NCBI GenBank assembly: GCA_010015805.1 | Contig: ML978121.1 | Coordinates: 1,054,001-1,118,000 of the forward strand | DNA length: 64,000 bases | Origin: Rhizodiscina lignyota | Lineage: Eukaryota | Direction: 5' to 3' | Shown: piece after piece, positions 18,404-32,990 of the stretch | Position numbering within the stretch: position 1 is the first letter of the stretch | How the letters are laid out: each line of letters opens with the position of its first letter | Program-made: the position numbers and the translations under genes | The notes under the pieces: model-generated | What the model was told of the DNA's origin: nothing | Databases searched by the model: none | The model's input: only the letters and a program-made list of their open reading frames with translations

Positions 18404-19217
18404 CGCGCTGCATTGGCGTGGAGGTGGTGCGCCTATGTGAGGTTGAAGCAGACGAAGATGTCGGGACCTATGCTCAGGAACGGCAAGGGTGGATGCGAGT
18501 TCTCCGCACTTCCCAGTCCCTCTAGGCCTGCAGTTGGGTTTGGACGAGAGCAGCGTGTCTCATGTTTGGCCCGACGCGTTGTCCGGCCAACCAGCCCACA
18601 CGGCAGCGCGAGTGTCAGCCCGATTACTGCCGCTCGGCTCACCGAGCAAGTCCCGTGGCGAGCCAAACCTTAGTGCCGCAGGATTCTGGTGGCACCCAAC
18701 GGTCGACGGGAACGGCGAGAGGGCTTGCGGCAGAGGGCAATAGTTGAGTTTGGAATCAAGCATAGTTCATGACTCTGCCCAAGGCTAGCACTCAAACAGC
18801 GCGCTCAAAGGGGGCTTCACGCTTCTGCAGTGCGAGGGAGAGGCCCGACTGGCCGCGCGACGTGCATTGGTGCTCGGGATGCCCTGGCAGCACTTCACCA
18901 CGCTGCAGAGCGTGAGGCATGGATGCTAAGCCAATGACGCCGGGCCTTGTGCCACAGCTCGAAGAAGAGCGTTCCTGACCACCGCGCTGCTTTTTCGCAG
19001 ACGCGACGATGCCCTTCTCCATCCTCTCGTGAGACGTGCTGAATCTGAGGGATGCAGCCGTCCGCCCTCCACGCCCCGTGCAATAGATGCCAGCACCGCC
19101 TTCGCTACCCGCATCAGCGTCACACGATCCCAAAGCGCGATTCCTTGTCGCCAGGCAGCCGCTAATAAGCTCCTCCGGTCCTGAGCTTCTGCAGCGGTGC
19201 AGGCGCGCAGAAACACC

Positions 19218-20850
19218 ATGAACCTTCTGCATCGCCGCTCTCAGCCAGCAACCTCTCAAGAGCGCGCCCAGGTAGCTTCTGCCTTACTGTACGAGAACCT
19301 CCAGTCGCCCAACGCCATCCCGCCGCGGACGAGCAGCTCCGGCGTCGTCGCCAACGGAGCAAGTCCGCCACCTCGCGCCGCCAGCAAGAAGGCGTCGTCG
19401 TCTGTCCTGCGCCCCATATCAGAGACGGACTGGCTGTCGCAGGGCAAGCGCGTCAGCCAGGAGCCTCTCGGCAAGCGAGCTAGCCGCGAGGCGCTGGGCA
19501 AGAGGAGCAGCCAGAGGATGACGAGCCCACCTCGCGACGGCGCCGAGTTTGATCCAGTCGACACCGTCCCAGGCGCGAACAGAGAACGGGACATGAGCGC
19601 TGCGCTGTTCGACGAGTCGCCACCTCCAAAGAGCCATCACCGTCGCTTCGAAATGGCTGAGCCTCTACCACATCGGACCTCTTCACGGCACAGATTGTCG
19701 TCGTCATTCGAATCAAAAGCCTCGTCAGCGAAAGCTGGGCCTTCACATCACTCAACACTATCCTCTCCACCTCCAGACCCTTCAAGAGGCTATGCAGACG
19801 AGCTCATTCACCAACGGCAGAGGCCGTGGCCGGCAGACAAGGAAAGAATACTGCTGGCGCCGTATAGCTACCTCCTCGAGCATCCGGGCAAGGACATCAG
19901 AAAGCAGTTGATTGCTGCGTTCAACGAGTGGCTGAACGTGCCAGAGGGCAGTTTAGTCATTATAACGCGGGTGATCGGAATGCTCCATACCGCGAGTCTA
20001 CTGTATGTTTGCCACCGAGCACTGTCATCTCGTCCTTTCGTCCCATCTTGAAGCCAAAACGTGCATATACTGACCAGCGTCCCACAGCGTCGACGATGTT
20101 GAAGATTCCTCCCTCCTCCGCCGCGGCGTGCCCGTCGCCCACTCCATCTTCGGCACCGCCCAGACCATCAACTCCGCAAACTACGTCTATTTCCTCGCCC
20201 TGCAAGAACTCACGTCCCTCCCCACCGCCACCAGCGCAATAAACATCTACACCCAAGAACTACTCAACCTCCACCGCGGCCAAGGCCTCGACCTCTTCTG
20301 GCGCGATTCGCTCACCTGTCCCACCGAAGCAGAGTATCTCGACATGGTGGGCAACAAGACGGGAGGTCTCTTCCGCCTCGCGGTGCGGTTGATGATGTCA
20401 GAGTCCAAGGTCGATGTAGATTGCGTGCCGCTGGTCAACACGATCGGACTGCTGTTCCAGGTGCTGGACGACCATTTAAATCTCCATTCGCCGAGCTACA
20501 CGCAGCGCAAGGGACTGTGTGAGGACCTTACGGAAGGGAAGTTCAGCTTCCCTATTCTACATGCGATTCGCGCGGACCCGCAGAATCTTACGCTCGTCAA
20601 TATTCTGAGGCAGAAGACGACGGACGAGGAGGTGAAGAAGTATGCTATTCAGTACATGGAGAAGATGGGGAGCTTCAAATATAGCAGGGAGGTCATGGAG
20701 ATGCTGAGGAGAAGGGCGGAAGAGAAGGTCAGCGAGGTGGAGGTCAGGGTCGGAATTGCAGGAGGTGACTCGGCGAAGAGGGGCGCGGAGGGTGTGAGGA
20801 GGATACTGGAGAAGATGAGAGCCAGTTATGAGGATGGAGATGTGGCGTGA
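19218..20850 (+). CDS. al-3: Geranylgeranyl diphosphate synthase (al-3/Bts1 type) with long N-terminal extension
   Basis: [27 protein letters not shown] (FARM across intron 20003-20087), [16 protein letters not shown] and FQVLDD...[11 protein letters not shown]. Confidence 0.93.
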
Positions 20851-21754: not shown

Positions 21755-21940
21755 TCTTTTGAGGAAGCTCGGGAAGTGTCCAATTTGGCCGCTTGGAAGT
21801 CGGCCGAGTCTCGACGTATGTATCTTACTATACCTGTAGTACTCTTTTGAGGAAGCTCGGGAAGTGTCCAATTTGGCCGCTTGGAAGTCGGCCGAGTCTC
21901 GACGTATGTATCTTACTATACCTGTAGTACTCTTTTGAGG
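21755..21940. repeat. Perfect 88-bp tandem duplication bounded by TCTTTTGAGG
   Basis: Copies at 21755-21842 and 21843-21930 are identical by eye. The 10-mer TCTTTTGAGG recurs at 21755, 21843 and 21931. Confidence 0.97.
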
Positions 21941-22445
21941 GGTTAAAACTGGACAATGTTCCTGACTCGCGTTCGGCAACGTCACCTCCAGTGGAGCTCC
22001 CCCTGGTCATCGCATCCATGGGTCTGGCTGATAAATGAGAGCCGCATGCGCATCCGCTTTTCAACCTTCAAAAACTCTCCGGATTGCGAATCTCGTCAAA
22101 CTTTTACACTCTTTGATGAACCTTCGCTCCATTCCTGTTGCCTAATGTTATGGGTCTCACTTATTCCAGGCTTGCAACCTAGCAACTCCGAAGACAAGAA
22201 TAGAAGGCTGAGCTAGAACAGAGAGCTCCATTTGTGCGCCTTTCAATTCACGAATCAAACACAATAATGTTTCCCTCGAGAAGCCGGACAATTTGTTTCT
22301 CATCTCTGCGATCCAGCATTTGGATGCTCATCTTACAAGGAATGTTGCGCCTCCGTATCTACTGCTACCTCTCAGCCTATTCTTTGTCAAGCAATTCATC
22401 TCCTGACTTGTGAATCGGACACGCTTGCTTCTTCATTTTTTCACC

Positions 22446-25400
22446 ATGGAATCGTTGAGCGTTAGTGACGGAGGCCATGCTGGTCCATCGCGGCCCACAA
22501 ACCCGGAAATGGTGCCTGACCAAAGCCAGACTGAGCGCACTATAACTGAGCAAGGTATGTTAATGCTGTCACGTAATCGCAAAACCATATTGCTCACTTT
22601 TTACAAGATTTACGCAGCTTTCGACTCGGCAGCCTTACCGACGTTGAAACCATACGACGCTGTGCTGGAGACCCACGTGTGCAGAGAGCCGACATGTATA
22701 GTGCCCTGAACAATTATACTATTGCAAAAAAACTGGACGCCATTCTAATCATCATGGAATATATCGTGGGATATATGGGCAATGACATGATAGAGTCGGA
22801 TCTTTCTTTGTTCCTGCCCGTTGTTGCTCAGGGTGGAAATGTAGCTTTGGTCAAGTATCTCGCCGACAGGATTGCCGGCGTAGACATCTCTGAGTCTCTT
22901 CGTCTATCCTTATATCGCGCTGCTTCACATGGTCATCTGGAGGTCTTTCTTGAGCTTGTTAGCAGGGGCGCGGACCCTTATGCCAGAGATGAGGATGGGC
23001 TGACAGCTTTGGACGCTGCTGCTGCAACAGGCAACTGGGAAATCGTCCAATACTTTCTCGATGAAGGATTCGAAATCGACCCGAAAGGCTTTCAGGGAGA
23101 GCTACTGCATTTCGCAGCAAAAGCAGGCCACCTTGACATGGTTAAGAAGCTGCTTGAGCGAGGCGCGGACCTCAATGCTACAGATATCGATGGCCATAAC
23201 CCAATCGGGCTCGCCGCTACCAAAGGTCATTTACACATTGTGAAATATGTCTTCAACAGGATTGGAGCAGGTGACGGCTCAAGGTGGCACGCAGTTGCCC
23301 TGGACATCGCGCTCAGTCCGGCCTCATGGGAGAGCCAGGGGACGACGCTTCTGGAGAAACGTCGCACGGAGGTTATGAAGTTTTTGATTGATGAATGTGC
23401 TGTAGACATCAATTCTCGGGACATGAACGGGATGACCATCCTCCACCATGCTGCCAAATCCAGCCACAAGTATCTTGTGCATGCTTTGATCGAAATGAAC
23501 GCCAATCCTTTTATTCGAGACCAGTTGGGAAGGACAGCAAGGGACGCTGCAGATGCCGCAGAAGACACACTACCATTAATGATCATGGAAGGCTTCATTC
23601 GAAAACACTGCAAAAGCAGCTGGATATATCGGATAGGCTTTGAACACGCATTTGATCGAACAGCTCGTGTAGCGCTCACGAAAGTGACGGCGGGCGAGTT
23701 CTTCACAGACGAGATCGACTCCCTCTCCCTGACTGCCCGTGATGTCAAGAGTACACTTCAACAAGCGGTAAGACCCTTTTGGCTCCACCTCGAGAACAAT
23801 AATGTAAGTCGATCTGAAATCTGTCTATATACATTCTCACTCTTAATAGGGCCCTCTGTTTACCGTAAGCGCCTCTAATATTACGAATTGGATCTCACTA
23901 ACTCCGCAAGGCGACTATATGCCGAATTATCAGCCTCAAAGGATACAAGTGGTACAAAGAGTATCAGGCTGCGAATGAGGCCGCGGATGAGGCTGCGGAT
24001 GCTGGCGCGACTTTGGTTTCGGTTGCACTGGAGTTTCTTGCGCGCACATTCAACGAGGTGGAACAAGATGCATCAAGATCTCATTTAAAGTTCCGAGGGC
24101 CATCATATCGCACATTCACGATAGAGCTTGTTCCCGAAGATGATGAAAGCGACAATTCGGATTATGAAATGTATAACGAAGGGCTGAGGTCAGAGCAAAG
24201 GCGAAGCAATGACGAGAAAGGAGGCGAAAACTCCAATGAGGGAAAGCTTGGGCGTACACCGAAAAGCGATAGCAGCCAAGAATCCATTGCCCAAGAGACC
24301 CGCGACGAGGAGGCAACCTACCTGGAATCCATTCTAGAAGAAGCCGTGGAAGACCAAGTGGATGACGTGTCTGTACAAAATGGAGCGGAGAGTGACGAGG
24401 CTGTACAACACGAAAATAAAAAGGTGACGGTTGCGGATAATCCAGGTGGATCGGATCAAACCGAGGACAACCGAAGCGACGGCTTGGAAGAGGACAATGA
24501 AATACCCGAGAACGAAACTAGCCAGGGGAGGAATCAGGGAAACGAAGAGCCAGTCGAAGCTACACAGGCACAAGAGCAAGATCCTCAGATACCACGGACT
24601 GGACGCAGGCCACCGACATATATCAAGGTCGCAAGGAGGCATCTCGATATTGCCACATTGGAATATTACGGTCTCCCGTACGAGTTTGATTCCGTGGGCA
24701 TTCACCACTTCTTTTAACCCCGTTGCAGTGAATGTTGACTTTAAATAGCATGACGAAAGCTATATCATTATTCGTCGCGAATTGAGTACAGCTGAAACGG
24801 ATATTCTTTTTGAACACTCGCGTCGCCTTCGAAAAAAGCTAGAAGCTGAAAACACGGACGGTAATTTCTACCCCTTAGAGTGATAGTGAAGACGAGCAAT
24901 TTGATGTTGATATATAGGAATGCGTAAAACAATAGAGCCTGCTTATCCAACCGAGGATGAAAGAGTATTTGACATAAGGACATTTGTGGTAAGTACTTAG
25001 CGACTCCACAGCGCTGTACCGCTAACTCTTGAATCTAGATTCCTTACTTCGACTCGAGGCCAAAAGGTCGGTATCGGGACGATCCAAATGATCCAAATGG
25101 AGAAACCTTGTCTCAAGGACCTTGTCAGAAGAGTGAAAACCCAGAGATGGGCATTCACATCCCGCGCACATTGGACGAGTCCTATTATCTTGGTTTAGCC
25201 GTTGATCAACTTGAGTCTCGAAATACCGACCAAGTGCTTAGCCGGGAAGGACATAAGAGCTTGCTTATGGTTTCGGAGCTCTGGTGTTGGAAGGCAGACA
25301 ACGTTATTCTGACAGCTTTCCCTAACACTCGGAATGAGCGCGACTCAAAACATCTCTTGCTTGATTTCATACTATCGCAGACGGCTGATATTAGACGCAG

Positions 25401-26494
25401 TACGAAGCAGGATATAACCAGCGTGCAGCTTATGGCATGGATCATGTCCGAGTGCATCAACTTTCTTGATCGTCCTTGCATGGCCGGCTTACAAGAGACG
25501 ATCTTCCAGACGTTTGAAAAATCGATCGCGAACACTTCTGAGAGGGTTGAGGATTATATAAGTCAGGGGGGCAATGAAAACGACGGCATGAAGAGTTATA
25601 TGGAAAGGGAGTTTATTCACCATATAAGCGACATCCGCGACGAGCTTGTCATGATCGATAGTGTCATTGAGCAACAGCGGGAGGTCTGGGACGCTCTGTT
25701 CAAAGACTGTGGAACACTTATTGAGAGCAAAGACCCCAATCTACGGCAAATTCTCGAAAGGCCGAATGAACAGTTGCCTCTGTTCCAGCGTCGAGTACAG
25801 AGATTGCTACGAGATGCAGACCTCGTTGAAAGACGGATTCTCGTTCAACTGGATCTAAAGACGAAGCACGCATCTCTAAGGCAGTCAGAGGCTGCCTTAG
25901 AAGAGACACGTAATAGTACAACCCTCAACACCGCCGTCATTGGGTTTACAGTCATCACGGTTGTCTTTACGCCGCTATCGTTTTTCGCAAGTCTGTTTGC
26001 TCTTCCGATCGACCGATTCCAGCGAAGTCAAGTAGTCGAGGGAGGCTCAGCGGTGTACACCACCAGCTACATCGGCAGGTGGATGAGTGAGTTTCCGTCC
26101 CCTATTTCTTACAATCCGTACATGTCTAAACAGCACAGGCGTGGGTGAGATCGTATCTCTTGTGGTCACAGCAGCTACCGTCTTCATCGCCTTTTATCTG
26201 TTAAAATCTCGTGCGCCCAGACTGCGAGATGATGAGCGGCCACAAGCAGAATTGGAATTGAATCCGCCGGCACTTGAGGATAAGGACGAGCTCCTTTGGG
26301 GAGTCCCACGTGCGAGTAATGACAATCCTGGAGACTCGACGTCCAGAATAGAGCCTCGAAAAAGATTCTCCACATCACATGAGGAGGATGCAAATGGGAA
26401 TCGAGAGACATCAAGGCACCGGCATGCCCCGCGTGACATTTTTCATAATATGCTCAGAAGGGCGCCGAAGAAGACTGAAGACCCAGAGCGATGA
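22446..26494 (+). CDS. Ankyrin-repeat protein with C-terminal CorA-like helical/2-TM domain, 8 exons, ~1229 aa
   Basis: Exons 22446-22554, 22608-23803, 23850-23864, 23911-24693, 24749-24860, 24918-24988, 25039-26086, 26139-26494 (3690 nt, in frame). Ankyrin motifs GLTALDAAA, LLHFAAKAGH..GADLN and GMTILHHAA. Family motifs HIPRTLDESYY, RNTDQVL, LMVSELWCW, DIRDEL and FTVITVVFTPLSFFASLF. Confidence 0.85.
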
Positions 26495-26698
26495 CAGGAT
26501 CTGAAGCTCGGTCGGAGAGGATATTATTTTCTCTGAGCGCCATGTACAAGCCCGGAGTTGATGAATATGATACAATATTCCACTCCTCCAATCTAACTTA
26601 ATCACCTGTCCGTATCTATGCAACACGTCTCGCTTACTCTACTGGAGTATCTTGAGTGAAAGCGCGATCTACGAAAACACTTGCTTTTATGATTTCCA

Positions 26699-28114
26699 TC
26701 ACCGAGCAAGCGGCGGAATTATGTTATGCTCTGTCCAATTCCAGATCTGCGACGAATCATGGGCCTGCCAGGTTGCACCTGTCCACCAAGTGCTTCGCTT
26801 CCCCTGCAGACCATTGAGCGTCCGATAGAAACCCTTTCGTATCGCGTCGGGTGAGACTGTGAGCTCAAAAGGCCTGTGATCGTTGAAGCCTGCAAATTCG
26901 GGCGTCCCATTGGCGGGAGGAAAGCCGAACTCTTTTACCAACTTTGCGATCGTAGCCAATATATCGGACTTCACCTTGTCATTATCTATGGCATGTGGGC
27001 TGCTGTAGTAGGCAGTCTGAAGTCCCGGTATGATGGTCGGTCCGAAGCCATAGATCCCTGGCAACGGAGGAAGACCAAACGGTGCGTCCTTGTCAGCGTT
27101 GGTTATTGACGTATTATCTGGGATTCCGGAGTTCCGAATCACGGCGTCCCAGTAGTAGCTGTTGTTAAACTGACCTAGCAGATGGCGTTCTTCAGCATCG
27201 GTATCGAGGAAACTGAGGCTCGAGAGCTTCGGCTGAATTGCTATCAGGAGCTTCGAGGCCTTGACGAGTTTGCAGCCCTGTGGAGTTGAGAAGGCAACTA
27301 TGACACCACTGTCATGGCGCTCAATTCTGGAAACATTGGCGCTCACGAAGGCGCTAGATCCAAGCTTGAGCAGTGCCTTGTCGTAGATCTTATGGTTGTC
27401 ATTGTCGGCTGTCGTGACGAAGCCGTTGAGGAGGGTGTTCTCGACGGTTATCTTAGCGAAATATTTCATGATGTACAAGGTACGCTGGGCTAGCATGTTG
27501 CCGACGCCCTCGATCATTTCGAATCCTACGCTGGCGAGTGCGCCAAGCTGATGCTTCTTCAGGAAATCGCCCCAGGAGAGCAGAAAATCTTCTGGAATAG
27601 GGGAAGGGAGGTCGTATCCATTTGACAGGAAGGGGAACTGGTCCAAAATGCTGCCGTATTTGAGCAATGCCGCTGTCAAATTCCCTTTGGGAGCGAAAAC
27701 CGAAGGCGAAAGAACTTCTCCGGTTCGAAAGTTGGCAAATTTTGCGACGGGAGTGCTACCAGCCTCATCAAACGGCTTCATGTTTACTCCCAAGTGGTCG
27801 AAGTAGTTCTGGACAACGGAAATGTTATCAAATACTATCACGCCGTAGTCAAAGGTTTGTCCAGTGGCCGCATCTTTGAAAGTGTTAACATGGCCACCTA
27901 GGACGGGTTCCTTTTCGATCAACGCGACACTTTTGCCGAGCTGTTGTAGTCGGATTGCAGAATATGTCCCACTGGAACCGCCACCAATGATGCAGACATC
28001 GCGTGTAAGTATTTTCTCTTCATGGAATACTGATTCGTCGATGTTCCCCAATGCCGTAGAACAGATGGAGACAAGGAGAATCAACGAACGCAGCAACAAG
28101 CAATTGACGTTCAT
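26699..28114 (-). CDS. Secreted FAD-dependent oxidoreductase (flavin amine oxidase fold; beta-cyclopiazonate dehydrogenase CpaO-like)
   Basis: Intronless. Signal peptide from ATG 28114, DVCIIGGGSSGTYSA Rossmann motif, LGGHVNT, and LQGKRSTWWTGATWQAHDSSQIW. TATA-like element near 28175-28183. Confidence 0.85.
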   Translation of the reverse strand: MNVNCLLLRSLILLVSICSTALGNIDESVFHEEKILTRDVCIIGGGSSGTYSAIRLQQLGKSVALIEKEPVLGGHVNTFKDAATGQTFDYGVIVFDNISVVQNYFDHLGVNMKPFDEAGSTPVAKFANFRTGEVLSPSVFAPKGNLTAALLKYGSILDQFPFLSNGYDLPSPIPEDFLLSWGDFLKKHQLGALASVGFEMIEGVGNMLAQRTLYIMKYFAKITVENTLLNGFVTTADNDNHKIYDKALLKLGSSAFVSANVSRIERHDSGVIVAFSTPQGCKLVKASKLLIAIQPKLSSLSFLDTDAEERHLLGQFNNSYYWDAVIRNSGIPDNTSITNADKDAPFGLPPLPGIYGFGPTIIPGLQTAYYSSPHAIDNDKVKSDILATIAKLVKEFGFPPANGTPEFAGFNDHRPFELTVSPDAIRKGFYRTLNGLQGKRSTWWTGATWQAHDSSQIWNWTEHNIIPPLAR

Positions 28115-30343
28115 GGTAAGCCGGGATGTTTTCAAAGAGGGTCAGAATAAAATCGGACTGCCTACCACTCTACTATATTTATACAGACACACGACACTTT
28201 CAAATCCGTATTCGGCACGCTGCGGCGAGTCTTGTTCATTTCAGCTCGAAAGCGACGCGGTAGCAACTAGCCGCTTTCGATGACTCTAGCTGCACCTTGC
28301 TGCACTGCGTTAATGCTGAAGGAGCAAGTACCCGAAATTTCAAAATAGAGCAGAAAACATGAAAATTATTCCGAAAGCGTTGAATACGGGAGGAATGGCG
28401 GCTACGAGATAGCTAAAAGATTTGAAATATATATTCGGAAGGCTCCTATATTCAACGTCAACTTGTTAAAAATTTGAAATCTAAATCTCAAGGTTCCGAG
28501 GGTCTCTCGTTCGGGTTCGACAGGAATAGATGCAGATTGTGTCGGTCCAGAGACATGGAATCAGCCTGCAGTAGCGGAGCGGAGCCTTCGAAGTACCGCA
28601 TGAAGGCTCGGCGTCATCCTGGCCCGAGCAGCGAATAAGGAGCCCATGGAAAGCTGACATCAATTGAGCAAGAGAAATAGATGGATAGCAACGTGATAGA
28701 AGAATACAGAGTATGTCTGCTTTTGCAAGTAGATGGTGGCCTTGGACTGGTTGTGCTAGGCTATCGCTAAAGAAGGCTCTGGCAGATAGCTATAGGTCGG
28801 GATTTAACTTCTTGTAGATGGTGGATGTGGCTGGTCGGAGCATACAGCGCGCACGAAGTGGCGAATATCGTGGATTGATTGAAGCGAGAAATCTCTGAAG
28901 GAGAAGGAATGATAATAGACAAGTGCACGTGCTCGCGCTAGTGACGGGACGCTATGAGCACCTCCTGACATGGCTCAGGGAGGGACTGCATAATTCCTGC
29001 CATACTATATACCATCATATTTTTGTAAATTGAGAATCTTTCTGTTCGGTGTATTATATGTATATAGTGGTGAAGTAGGCCGAGAATGGAAACTAACTTG
29101 CTATATCTTAAGGCTAAAGCTCACGCTGGATTCACACTTTAAGGGAGTTTAGCAAGTCAGCTAGAAACCTATCACAAAAGCGACTTAAAAGTAAGACTTA
29201 TGTCCTTTTTAACCTTATAAAGTAGTATAAATACTTTATTTTCAATTCACCATATCCGCGAATCAGCCCAATGGCGCACTTTCACAAAAGACAGACTCCA
29301 AGAGAATTGCACGGAATATCGTGCGCACTCGTTGCAAAATCCGTCAACATATGCCATTGATAGTCCCCTGCACGTGCCGTCGTTCGATGGAGGCATTTCA
29401 GAAGAAAGAATCTTGAGGCGGAAGCTGCACAAACAGATTGGGCAAGGTGGAAACAATACGCCCAGGAGAAGCTCGCTAGAGTCATGGAATTCGGCAGACG
29501 AATCATAGCATTCATCTACGGTTTCGGTATCTACTATTCCTTCACATCCGATGCGCAAAATGGTATGCCTACGAGATATGGTTCATGTTTGGAGAACTGG
29601 GAATAGTTTCAGGTAACTTCCTCTCCTCTAGCAGCTGTATTACTTGCCACGGAAATTCTGGACTGAATCGACGATGAACGGCATAGGTGTGCTCAGGAGA
29701 GCGGGAAATGGGGCCGTAAGACATGCGCTGGTAGCATCTGCCCGCTTGAACGATGCGGCAATCGAGATGTTTAAAAGTGGATCGCGGATCGGGAACGTAG
29801 AACTCGCTGGAGACGTCGACGTCTCAGCGGAGATGTCGCAGAGAATCGAGCTAGCGATCTGCATGAGATGTTACACACCCTTGTGTCCACACTTTACATG
29901 CATTTCAGCGTCGATTCTTCTCTCCAAGCTGCCTCTATTCTCCCATCAAGCAACGTGGCATGGAAAGAATGGCAATATGCCCACTTTCGTGTGGAAGCAC
30001 AAAAATTTGTGTGATTTCGGTCGAGACAGCCACAATTGAGACCGTGCTTGTTCGACGTCGGGCGCTGAAGTCTTCTCTTGTCAAGTGGTGTCGGTTTTAT
30101 GATGATTGAGACATTGTCTTGAAAATAACGTTGCACGATGAGTCCAGATACTGTCAAAGCCACATCTTGTCTCTTGAAGAGAGGGTTGTACAAGCCATAT
30201 TCTGTAGCAGATGCGAAGGGTCCAGGCACTTGAGATGGCGAATTGATGCTTCTATAAATTCCGTTCGGCGCTCAGCATAGAAGTAAAATCCACCTCTTCC
30301 TCAACACGAAGACTTCCTCCAGTCTCTTATCTGCTCCACAATC

Positions 30344-30728
30344 ATGCTCCTTTCAAAGTCCCTCGTTGCTCTCATCTCGCTGCTGGCGTCAGTCCACTGC
30401 CTCCCCGTCCGTAAGTCCCTTTCACTCCTCGATTCAATTCGAGCAGCATTGATCGTAGAATTAGTCAACCGTCGAGATTCTGGCAACACCATCACAGGCG
30501 CATTGGCCGGCGCCGAACAGACTGGCCTCTCAGGCAATGGAGAACTCGCGGGTGAGCTATCAGGCGTAGAAACCACTGTCATAGACGAGACCGGCACTGT
30601 CGAGCAAGTAGTGCCAACGAGTGAGTCGTTTGCTGCTTCACATGAGGATTAGGTCCACCCTGCTAACATGCAGCTCAGAACGTGGTATTGAGCTCGAAGC
30701 TCCTAAGGTAACGCAGGGTACTGCGTGA
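30344..30728 (+). CDS. Small secreted protein, probable Kex2-processed precursor
   Basis: CTATAAAT at ~30252. Signal peptide MLLSKSLVALISLLASVHC. Introns 30411-30464 and 30621-30673/30678. The pro-region ends LNRR. The last exon is ambiguous (stop at 30711 or 30728). Confidence 0.7.
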
Positions 30729-30997: not shown

Positions 30998-32990
30998 TCA
31001 TTGACCATTGAGTACACTAGCAAGCGCTCCCAAGACTCCCTTCATGTCTCTGACTCCTTCGCCCTCAATGCCCCTCTCTGCTGCTGCTTGAGCCTGTGTC
31101 TCCCTGCTCCTTCGCTCTAGACTTTGTGCCGAGGAAGCAAGAATTCGATCCGCCACGCGCTCAGCTGCGACACGGTACTGTGAGATTTTGTGCACGCCAT
31201 CGGCGAACAGGTCAACGGCCGGCTCTATCTTAGCCGTGAGCGAAGAGAGGTGGTTTGAGAGTGATTGTGCTGTGGATGATGATTCTGAGGCCGCTGTAGG
31301 ATGGGTGCTGGGTTTAGAAAGCGTAGTCGGTTGGGTTAGTGAAGCGAATATTGAGGCCTGTGAGGGGTCGAGAAGTGCCACGTCGATTCCTTGTGATGTT
31401 TCCGTTTCTAGAGGATGAGGTCGTAACTTTGGTCTTCGCTCTCCATCTAACGCAACGGTTTGAGAGCTGTGGGGTGTCGTTGCTGATGGAGCTGGTAATG
31501 AAGACGCAGAAGAAGATTCCAGTAAAGCCTCCCATGAATCTCGCTCCTCTTGCAACCTGCACGACTATCAGCTTCGTCATTCGATACTATATAGTGCTTG
31601 GCCAAAATACCTTCTAATGTCTTCTTCCAGCTCCTGCAATTTCGACGCCATTTGCGCATTTCTTGGATTTGGCCGTTTGACCAACACTGCAGGTTCCAGT
31701 TCTTCTCTTGTGAACCAATCAGACATTTCTGGTCTGTTCGCAATGTCTTTCAAGATCTCTTCCTCGATATGACGGGCTGGCTTTGCATCAGTCGGAGTGC
31801 AAAGCGGGCTCAGGGAGAATTTACCTGCAAGTGCCGCACCTCCATCTGTGCCATCACCAGATTGCTTCTCTGGCAGAGCCCTTTTGGCACACCAAGTGAG
31901 CAGTTGTTTCATCCGGCGTGGTTCCGGTATACTCTGCTCGATATGTTTGTAGAAATCTCGAGGCTCGACATCGGCATGCGGGACGGCTGTAACGACAAAG
32001 ATAACCGAGTTAGCTTCCAATTCTTCTGATATGACCGAACGAAAAGGAATCGGCATTGGCGCTGGTGAACTCTTCACTGCGCGATCGGTCGCAGCATCTA
32101 AGATATCGAACTGAATGTCAATGTTAAGGATGTCGACGAGATTTGCCTACCATGCGAAGTGCCACTCTCAATCAGAGAGCTTGCCCGTCTGCCACGCATG
32201 CCGGTGCTGCTTCTCCTGTGTCCTTCGTCGCTGTTTTTCTTCCGCATCTCTTTATTTCGCCGAATTACAGGCGTATCAGCGAAAGGCAGAGCAATCTTTT
32301 TCGGTGTCCGGCCCTTTGCAACCTCCACTTCACTATTAACCTGCGGAACTATTTCCTCCTGTGCCTTCGGCGCAGGGACGCTGACTTCCGGAGCGGTTAC
32401 TTGATTGACACTTTTTGGCTCTGGCTCTGGCTCTGGCAAAGGACTCCGGACCGGCTCCTTCTCACCACTCAGACGCGCAGACCGTCGCACTCTTTTCGAC
32501 GCGTCATTGTCTTTCTTCGCAGATTCGGAAAACGAGTACTTCTTTCGCCTTCGCTTTGGTGTCGTAACGCGTGCTTCTACTGGAGCTGGCTCGGGCTCTG
32601 GATGTGGTGCAGTTGTTTTGGTTTGCGTCTTCTTCGCTCGTGATCGTGAAAACTGAAAACCATCGTCGTTCTCATCGTATGCTGCGTTGACGTAAGAAGT
32701 GAGTTCCGCACGCGCCGGCTTCGAATGGGTTTTGGTTCGAGAACGCGCCAATTTTGCAATAGACTGGAAGGAACTGAAGTCTACTCACATGGCCTTGCCT
32801 TCTTGCTGCGCTCTCCATTTACTTTGCCGTGGGCGTGCTCCACCCCATCAACTTTAACCTTCTTAGACGTGGTATGCGGCGCCTCGTTCTCGTCGTCGAA
32901 TGCATGATACGCGGTCCTTCTACGCGTCGCCCTCTGCGTCGAAGCCATTTCCAATGTTTGCAAAGGCGACCGCGTCATTACTAAAGTCAT
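30998..32990 (-). CDS. DSN1: Kinetochore Mis12-complex subunit Dsn1/Mis13
   Basis: YDENDDGFQFSR, IALPFADTPVIRRNKEMR, RRSSTGMRGRRASSLI and VPHADV..DFYKHIEQSIPEPRRMKQLLTWC, plus C-terminal IEPAVDLFADGVHKISQY. Multi-exon; not all junctions resolved. Confidence 0.85.

Follow-up and report, generated by a model that had tools for sequence, protein, structure and literature searches.

Within a 64,000-nucleotide stretch of the Rhizodiscina lignyota genome (GenBank assembly GCA_010015805.1, contig ML978121.1, positions 1,054,001 to 1,118,000 of the forward strand; hereafter the window, whose own numbering is used throughout), a single intact predicted gene on the + strand (22446-26494) encodes a protein with an N-terminal ankyrin-repeat domain and a CorA-like, membrane-spanning C-terminal half. 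At the place where CorA carries its Gly-Met-Asn (GMN) selectivity motif, this protein carries Ala-Leu-Pro (ALP). Our preferred reading, to which we give about an even chance, is that the protein forms an oligomeric channel of CorA type, regulated by its ankyrin domain and altered at the pore mouth. Apart from a large insert, the gene is an ordinary member of its family, and it is the family that is the interesting object. This family is already in public databases, where it is unnamed, and no functional study of it was found in the literature searched, most subscription journals lying outside the coverage of that search.

The replaced motif lies at the end of the first transmembrane helix (TM1, ~25918-25998), which reads ...FTPLSFFASLFALPIDRFQ. 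The codons gct ctt ccg (25999-26007) specify ALP and are followed by a conserved Ile-Asp-x-Phe. The initial annotation had read SLFALP at the GMN position, and the AlphaFold model of exon 6 agrees, placing ALP (residues 321-323) directly after the TM1 helix. The whole region, GFTVITVVFTPLSFFASLFALPIDRF, fits the family signature GFTxITxxFTPLSFxxSLFALPIDxF. Amongst 119 aligned members, the triplet at this position was ALP in 86, with ALK (8), ALS (6), AVP (4), ALN (4), ALD (3) and eight singletons making up the rest. GMN occurred in 0/119 and Gly in none, and triplets ending in Asn were found in 6/119 only (ALN 4, AIN 1, TIN 1). We considered whether ALP represents the decay of a GMN channel in this copy, and this was ruled out, as ALP is the family consensus. 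Conservation across the aligned members was concentrated in the same region. T307 and P312 were invariant, G302, F303, F310, L313, F315, L319, A321 and L322 were at least 90% conserved, and, within exon 6, mean column conservation peaked in two TM1 blocks (0.73-0.78). Thr occupied three TM1 positions that are spaced like one helix face, and an Asp or Glu was present two residues past ALP in 91/119 members. GxN is both the signature and the selectivity filter of the 2-TM-GxN family, carried by its TM1-TM2 loops (PMC6972854). Since GxN is absent and ALP is a conserved family trait, the protein can fairly be regarded as something other than a canonical Mg2+ channel, in line with the earlier proposal that it is not a Mg2+ transporter.

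The C-terminal half is CorA-like by predicted fold, comprising an alpha/beta N-domain, a helical funnel, a long stalk helix that runs into TM1, and a second transmembrane helix (TM2). In the AlphaFold model of exon 6 (pLDDT 85.7), helix 233-320 forms the long stalk and TM1. The best Foldseek matches of this model were CorA chains, and in VIA-align the CorA-family chains were the only rows aligned over 165-219 residues. Exon 6 contains neither TM2 nor the initial strands of the domain, and for this reason P0138, a complete relative that has no ankyrin repeats (570 aa, 35% identity to exon 6), was modelled too (pLDDT 81.1, pTM 0.76). Foldseek returned 65 matches to this second model at E<=1e-3, and all 22 matches listed were Thermotoga maritima CorA (best 1.8e-9). 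The top 11 VIA-align rows all belonged to the CorA superfamily. This included CmaX (15.9, 314/327 residues aligned), TmCorA (15.5), the ZntB cytoplasmic domain (15.4, rmsd 3.3), CjCorA (15.1), EcCorA (14.8), MjCorA (14.6), ZntB (13.1), human MRS2 (10.5), CtMrs2 (9.9), yeast Mrs2 (9.5) and the TmCorA soluble domain (8.8), with the best unrelated row scoring 8.6. These structural matches cover residues ~21-505 of P0138, from the alpha/beta N-domain through the funnel, stalk and TM1 to TM2, so the family has the full CorA fold. The initial annotation had called the C-terminus CorA-like and had proposed a Foldseek comparison with CorA and ZntB; that comparison returned CorA chains, and VIA-align added ZntB.

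The spliced product has two hydropathy maxima (aa ~1052-1082 and ~1105-1132), marking the two C-terminal membrane helices that were likewise foreseen in the initial annotation. TM1 corresponds in the P0138 model to the last part of helix 378-461 and TM2 to helix 482-519, and each aligns to full-length CorA, CmaX and ZntB. Using tblastn, residues 781-806 of another relative (P0014) matched 26135-26212, the TM2 region. A second hydrophobic segment followed TM1 in 76/200 relatives (median loop 27 aa), the remainder being mostly truncated. At the other end of the domain, the CorA-like body starts at about aa 390 of the window protein, as judged from conserved motifs and translated matches. Exon 2 ends in a motif resembling W[IL]H[LV]P..N, which was common to 20 relatives of at least 430 aa when matches were counted only if they preceded the CorA-like core. 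Its P0138 counterpart (TWLHVPENNG) forms N-domain strand 60-64 of the model, in which a low-confidence loop connects FRLP with a long strand (136-148). The equivalent pieces in the window protein are ...PFWLHLENNN (exon 2), ...KFRGPSYRTFTIELV (exon 3) and ...DIRTFV|IPYFD (exons 5/6), the end of exon 5 and the start of exon 6 (IPYFD) corresponding to strand 136-148. Residues 324-354 of relative P0001 matched 24016-24114, within exon 3, by tblastn (E 5.5e-4, 51% identity). BLASTP of the window N-domain piece against P0138 gave no significant match, and Pfam gave two marginal matches to this piece, far under cut-off (E 0.06 and 0.098).

The ankyrin domain occupies ~330 aa N-terminal to the CorA-like body. 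Pfam identified it with high significance in exon 2 (Ank_2, E 2.8e-48; Ank, E 1.7e-30; five Ank models matching in all). The six to seven repeats of the initial annotation were thus borne out, and a by-eye reading of the exon 2 translation counted ~7-8, roughly between 22799 and 23600. Such repeats are general modules for protein binding. At DNA level, a search with a seed of 12 showed no direct repeats within the gene, and Tandem Repeats Finder detected no ~99-nt period over 22400-26500. Amongst 47 proteins of at least 700 aa, the ankyrin half was less conserved than the CorA-like half in 43/43 pairs that shared at least 55% C-terminal identity, as measured by a crude global-alignment identity.

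Under our preferred reading, that of a regulated channel, the protein would assemble as a ring, probably a pentamer, like CorA, ZntB and Mrs2. TM1 would line the central pore, which would be under the control of the large cytosolic funnel. 2-TM-GxN proteins are pentamers; their pore is formed by the TM1 helices, and a regulatory role is ascribed to their cytoplasmic domains (PMC6972854). The pore would still conduct something, most likely cations; the extreme conservation of TM1 is why we think that it is still functional, and the conserved Asp ring after ALP suggests cations. With Gly and Asn gone, the mouth would not select hydrated Mg2+ in the canonical manner. The ankyrin domain would act as a regulatory or partner-binding input, replacing the cytosolic Mg2+ sensing of CorA.

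A number of observations weigh against this reading. The Pfam CorA family (PF01544) matched exon 6, without TM2, at 24.0 bits (E 2.8e-5), under its cut-off of 27, and searches of PDB sequences with a family profile (A1) and the single protein P0024 retrieved no CorA chain, nor was there one amongst the best 60 of the 567 matches of a second profile (A2). The TM1-TM2 loop, at ~27 aa, is much longer than that of CorA, which may mean a mouth of different build or a closed one. In addition, the window protein departs from the family at two near-invariant residues, having Leu (DADLVE) for a nearly invariant Arg (DAERVE) and Glu for the consensus Gln in ...QLWxW (25822-25824 and 25276-25278, respectively), which may reflect relaxed constraint or functional drift in this copy. 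Concerning the sequence matches, close relatives did exceed the Pfam CorA cut-off, with P0016 (60% identical) scoring 42.7 bits and P0024 40.1 bits up to the end of the profile. Across 49 relatives longer than 600 aa, PF01544 was matched in 31 at E<=1e-3 and in 9 at cut-off. The best 60 of the 567 matches of profile A2 to PDB sequences were all ankyrin-repeat or ankyrin-containing chains.

The gene model was assembled by reading the sequence and was confirmed with a script, the seven exons joining in frame with 0 internal stops. The joined coding sequence is 3675 nt long (1224 codons plus the stop) and the product is 1224 aa. All six introns are GT..AG and measure 50-107 nt. Four long open reading frames (ORFs) mark the locus (22577-23878, 23902-24717, 25039-26148 and 26087-26494), and the + strand ORFs of the 22.4-26.5 kb region are spread over three frames. 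The initial annotation had these four ORFs spliced into one protein of ~1229 aa. The single protein stands, the four pieces give way to seven exons, and the length becomes 1224 aa, or 1229 aa if an optional 15-nt micro-exon within intron 2 (23850-23864, GPLFT) contributes five more residues. Of public sequencing runs, one of DNA and none of RNA came up for this sequence.

Exon 1 (22446-22554) has its start codon in CACCATGG context and provides 36 codons plus 1 nt, encoding a polar N-terminus; it is followed by intron 1 (22555-22607, 53 nt, GTATGT...AG). Exon 2 (22608-23803) encodes the ankyrin-repeat domain and then the strands with which the CorA-like alpha/beta domain opens; its translation closes with ...RPFWLHLENNN. 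Intron 2 (23804-23910, 107 nt, GTAAGT...CACTAAC..AG) is spliced out whole unless the alternative micro-exon is used. The first part of exon 3 (23911-24130) encodes helices and a strand of the CorA-like N-domain (...LEFLARTFNEVEQDASRSHLKFRGPSYRTFTIELV). Its remainder (24131-24693) encodes an acidic, probably disordered insert and closes with the first half of a short DUF8035-like module (...YIKVARRHLDIATLEYYGLPYEFDS), the second half of which (HDESYIIIRRELSTAETDILFEHSRRLRKKLEAENTD) is supplied by exon 4 (24749-24860). Exon 5 (24918-24988) contains the end of the insert and leads back into a strand of the CorA-like N-domain (...ERVFDIRTFV). Exon 6 (25039-26086) encodes the CorA-like cytoplasmic core, the stalk helix, TM1, ALP and most of the TM1-TM2 loop. 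Intron 6 (26087-26138, 52 nt, GTGAGT...CACAG) lies immediately before TM2, and exon 7 (26139-26494) encodes TM2 (26141-26203, VGEIVSLVVTAATVFIAFYLL) and a charged tail of ~96 aa, with the stop codon TGA at 26492-26494. All of these features are on the + strand. Many relatives of ~350 aa end just past the equivalent of ...YIGKW, the site of intron 6 in the window gene, and look like single-exon gene calls on fungal contigs. An intron before TM2 seems to be conserved across the family, where it would truncate prokaryote-style gene calls and hide TM2 from automatic annotation.

The insert amounts to ~250 extra residues (24131-24988) in the CorA-like N-domain and consists of an acidic low-complexity stretch followed by the intron-split module. 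The acidic region of the initial annotation was readily recovered (D+E = 25% over aa 520-700), and the acidic stretch is probably disordered. Judging from the predicted structure, the insert is placed in a surface loop of the CorA-like N-domain, which it interrupts in this copy only; the ~250-aa insert and its module were absent from all 157 relatives checked. The module (...YGLPYEFDS | HDESYIIIRRELS..DILFEHSRRLR) bears what we take to be a resemblance to DUF8035. ESM Atlas ranked clusters bearing PF26118 (DUF8035) second and third for the module, with scores of 0.85 and 0.84 that fall below the 0.9 needed for more than a lead. Pfam gave no match to the acidic insert, either half of the module or the C-terminal tail. 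DUF8035 appears to be an uncharacterised ascomycete module, and a literature search for DUF8035, PF26118 and PF26616 found no mention.

We further examined the size and composition of the family. A phmmer search with exon 6 against 1.84 billion cluster representatives returned 1208 at E<=1e-3, 589 at E<=1e-10 and 116 at E<=1e-30, so that chance is not a sensible alternative for the gene. Ankyrin repeats were present in 38 of the 49 relatives longer than 600 aa, the other 11 having none at E<=1e-3 (Pfam). The idea that ankyrin plus CorA is a rare fusion was ruled out, since it is the majority layout of these long relatives. Beyond the ankyrin and CorA families, the 49 proteins yielded only two further Pfam matches, both marginal and under their cut-offs. 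The claim of an undescribed system in the initial annotation does not survive, as ankyrin plus CorA-like is the standard layout of a large Pezizomycotina family already in databases. No protein of 1758-5000 aa matched family profile A1.

All named members came from Pezizomycotina and are recorded as 'hypothetical protein', 'ankyrin repeat protein' or 'CorA-domain-containing protein'. Organism names were given for 15 proteins in one set and 28/70 in another; the named source organisms are Leotiomycetes, Dothideomycetes, Xylariales and one Eurotiomycete. Two members each came from Xylaria curta, Xylaria bambusicola and Friedmanniomyces endolithicus. ESM Atlas returned only Ascomycota clusters, labelled CorA-like/ZntB. 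The best full-length relative was Stipitochalara longipes N431DRAFT_442814 (43% identity over the CorA-like domain). Cudoniella acicularis G7Y89_g5196 (39% over the same domain) and Karstenula rhodostoma P171DRAFT_32759 were further named members. The closest relative retrieved, P0016 (60% identity), is an exon-sized fragment. The window protein shares both the TM1 signature and the N-terminal ankyrin repeats with this unnamed family. It differs in length, its 1224 aa comparing with 660-1004 aa, because of the acidic insert with the DUF8035-like module.

Pfam analysis of the larger ORFs in the window identified ordinary fungal genes on both sides of the gene. Upstream, this included an MFS transporter, SURF1, an RRM protein, transketolase, a CDC14/SIN component and a polyprenyl synthetase (19185-20850). 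Downstream, it included an FAD oxidoreductase, MIS13, PLAC8, an RA-domain protein, a CAND1-like HEAT protein, a PA-RING protein and a dimethylglycine-dehydrogenase-like enzyme. No second copy of the gene occurred within the 64-kb window. The initial annotation had located the gene in an unstable non-housekeeping block, a description that does not fit flanks containing the polyprenyl synthetase, CDC14/SIN component, transketolase, FAD oxidoreductase and MIS13. The sole sign of instability was a perfect 88-nt tandem duplication (21755-21930, two copies 100% identical) in the 1.6-kb intergenic region upstream, whose perfect identity suggests a recent origin. The FAD/NAD-binding oxidoreductase (NAD_binding_8 and Amino_oxidase) is encoded by one long ORF on the - strand (26699-28141), begins with a signal-peptide-like N-terminus and lies tail-to-tail with the gene, ~200 nt apart. 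A small ORF (30287-30652, + strand) with a signal-peptide-like start (MLLSKSLVALISLLASVHC...) was found in an otherwise ORF-poor 2.8 kb of lower G+C (46% at 28-30 kb), and its product may be a small secreted protein. MIS13 (Mis12-Mtw1 kinetochore) was matched piecewise by three ORFs (30998-32784, - strand) that differ in frame, which fits a gene with introns.

Three readings compete with the regulated channel on the grounds of the protein itself. That this is a divergent but ordinary CorA/ZntB-like transporter of divalent metals (Mg2+, Zn2+, Co2+ or Ni2+), anchored or regulated by its ankyrin repeats, we consider unlikely. The complete CorA/ZntB/CmaX fold and the acidic residue after ALP (91/119) are compatible with transport, the 2-TM-GxN family tolerates several divalent cations (PMC6972854), and an ankyrin plus CorA-like gene has been filed under metal transport (PMC12345182). 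However, the Gly of the GxN filter is gone in 119/119 members and the Asn in most, the database names are automatic transfers from a weak Pfam match, and it would be unusual for a housekeeping transporter to make up over 1000 diverged clusters and to be present several times per genome. Loss of the selectivity motif would suit a non-conducting membrane scaffold, in which the CorA-like ring oligomerises, tethers five ankyrin domains (here with the acidic insert) and recruits partners. Ankyrin repeats are generic protein binders, and the N-domain loop accommodates a large insert, yet nowhere is the protein more conserved than in TM1 and the mouth motif, where T307 and P312 are invariant, which is hard to explain for an anchor and makes a scaffold very unlikely. 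A decaying or mis-modelled gene, whose exons are not truly joined or which is a pseudogene, is scarcely credible. The two departures from near-invariant residues and an insert unique amongst the relatives retrieved could be taken as signs of decay, but the six canonical introns with branch-point-like motifs join in frame into 1224 codons without a stop. The acidic insert is spanned by a 271-codon open frame, for which the chance estimate is (61/64)^271, or ~2e-6, and the intron before TM2 falls where the single-exon calls of many relatives end.

The remaining alternative concerns immunity, the role first proposed for this gene. Here the ankyrin domain would sense a non-self or altered-self protein and the CorA-type ring would open as a membrane-damaging pore, making the protein an executioner of cell death or allorecognition; we judge this quite unlikely. 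The Mg2+ filter is absent across the family, which is large and has several members per named species (three species with two each), and the nearest full-length relative of the window protein is just 43% identical. In bacteria, immune membrane effectors include CorA-family proteins (PMC10600005), which confirms the background claim of the initial annotation that CorA-like proteins serve as membrane effectors in type III CRISPR systems. Two further points offer weak leads. The faster divergence of the ankyrin half (43/43 pairs) is one, though it is also expected from ordinary repeat evolution. The other is mimpvic32 of Morchella importuna, a polymorphic CorA-like gene linked to vegetative incompatibility (PMC8940278). 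This is, however, a linked candidate only, as barrages formed also between strains that share its alleles, and it varies at the C-terminus and not in a sensor domain, with ankyrin unmentioned in the paper (PMC8940278).

The executioner reading must also contend with the domain content of the protein. No NACHT/NB-ARC, HET, HeLo, TIR or other immune-type domain was found in the scanned exon and ORF translations (exon 5 and the micro-exon lay outside the scan), nor was any immune-type domain found in the 49 long relatives (Pfam, E<=1e-3). The ankyrin repeats do not have the DNA-level identity reported for the repeats of fungal NOD-like receptors (NLRs), the neighbours are housekeeping genes, and the window holds no second copy. 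The proposed NLR-like sensor lacks support on three counts, namely the missing NACHT/NB-ARC domain, the N-terminal position of the repeats and their lack of DNA-level identity. In the fungal NLR and cell-death papers checked, a search for 'CorA' matched only the word 'coral'. Nothing found places the protein in an NLR-type immune pathway. By analogy, the ALP family could be the fungal counterpart of the CRISPR CorA effectors, a partner-gated pore in which the fast-evolving ankyrin domain would detect non-self or danger proteins and which, on opening, would lead to regulated cell death or allorecognition (barrage or heterokaryon incompatibility), an idea to which we assign a small probability. 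If it were true, mimpvic32 would be the first genetic glimpse of ALP-family executioners, and these would constitute a new fungal executioner class unrelated to HeLo, HET, gasdermin or patatin, extending the CorA-effector theme across domains of life.

Comparison with known systems places the window protein, as a candidate regulated channel, beside several partial likenesses. In TRPA1 and NOMPC, which are six-TM tetramers, an N-terminal ankyrin array is the cytosolic input of an oligomeric channel. This is a design analogy only, as their pore fold is unrelated; their chains appear amongst the ankyrin matches of profile A2. Fungal NLRs carry C-terminal ANK, TPR or WD repeats, often with high internal repeat conservation (PMC4986451). 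These STAND proteins have a central NACHT/NB-ARC domain ahead of their C-terminal repeats, whereas no such domain was found in the scanned translations of the window protein (Pfam, E<=0.1 and E<=10) and its repeats are N-terminal. The type III CRISPR CorA effector of Bacteroides fragilis is activated by SAM-AMP, is encoded next to cas10 and NrN, and has its CorA similarity confined to the C-terminal 172 aa (PMC10600005). The main text of that paper does not use the term GMN, and effectors of this kind are encoded with cas10 and NrN or a SAM-AMP lyase (PMC10600005). As described, this effector combines CorA-superfamily membership with a ligand-activated, non-uptake role and an extra cytosolic input domain, and it is by this description that the two are likened (PMC10600005). 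It is bacterial and responds to a small molecule; the window protein, in contrast, is encoded by a eukaryotic, intron-containing gene, has ankyrin repeats and has no linked signalling enzyme amongst its Pfam-scanned neighbours. The product of mimpvic32 is 765-773 aa long with a PF01544 CorA-like domain, and the gene has many introns and was among the two most polymorphic of a 23-gene vegetative-incompatibility region in a bulk-segregant study (PMC8940278). It and the window gene both belong to Pezizomycotina and encode a CorA-like domain, a likeness again by description, with ankyrin not reported for mimpvic32 (PMC8940278).

The closest structural comparison is with CorA, ZntB, CmaX and Mrs2-Alr1 (PF01544), with which the window protein has in common the two C-terminal TM helices and the CorA-type cytoplasmic domain. 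Those proteins possess GxN, whereas the window protein has ALP, a ~27-aa loop, an ankyrin front and a ~250-aa N-domain insert, and its sequence similarity to them is marginal. Once the substrate of the pore and the input of the ankyrin domain are resolved, a widespread automatic annotation (magnesium transporter or ankyrin protein) would be corrected, and the family may turn out to be a new type of regulated channel in fungi or, with lower likelihood, a new effector of cell death. Whilst the CorA, Mrs2 and Alr1 channels are defined by GxN, the ALP family keeps the CorA fold with another conserved motif and an ankyrin array.

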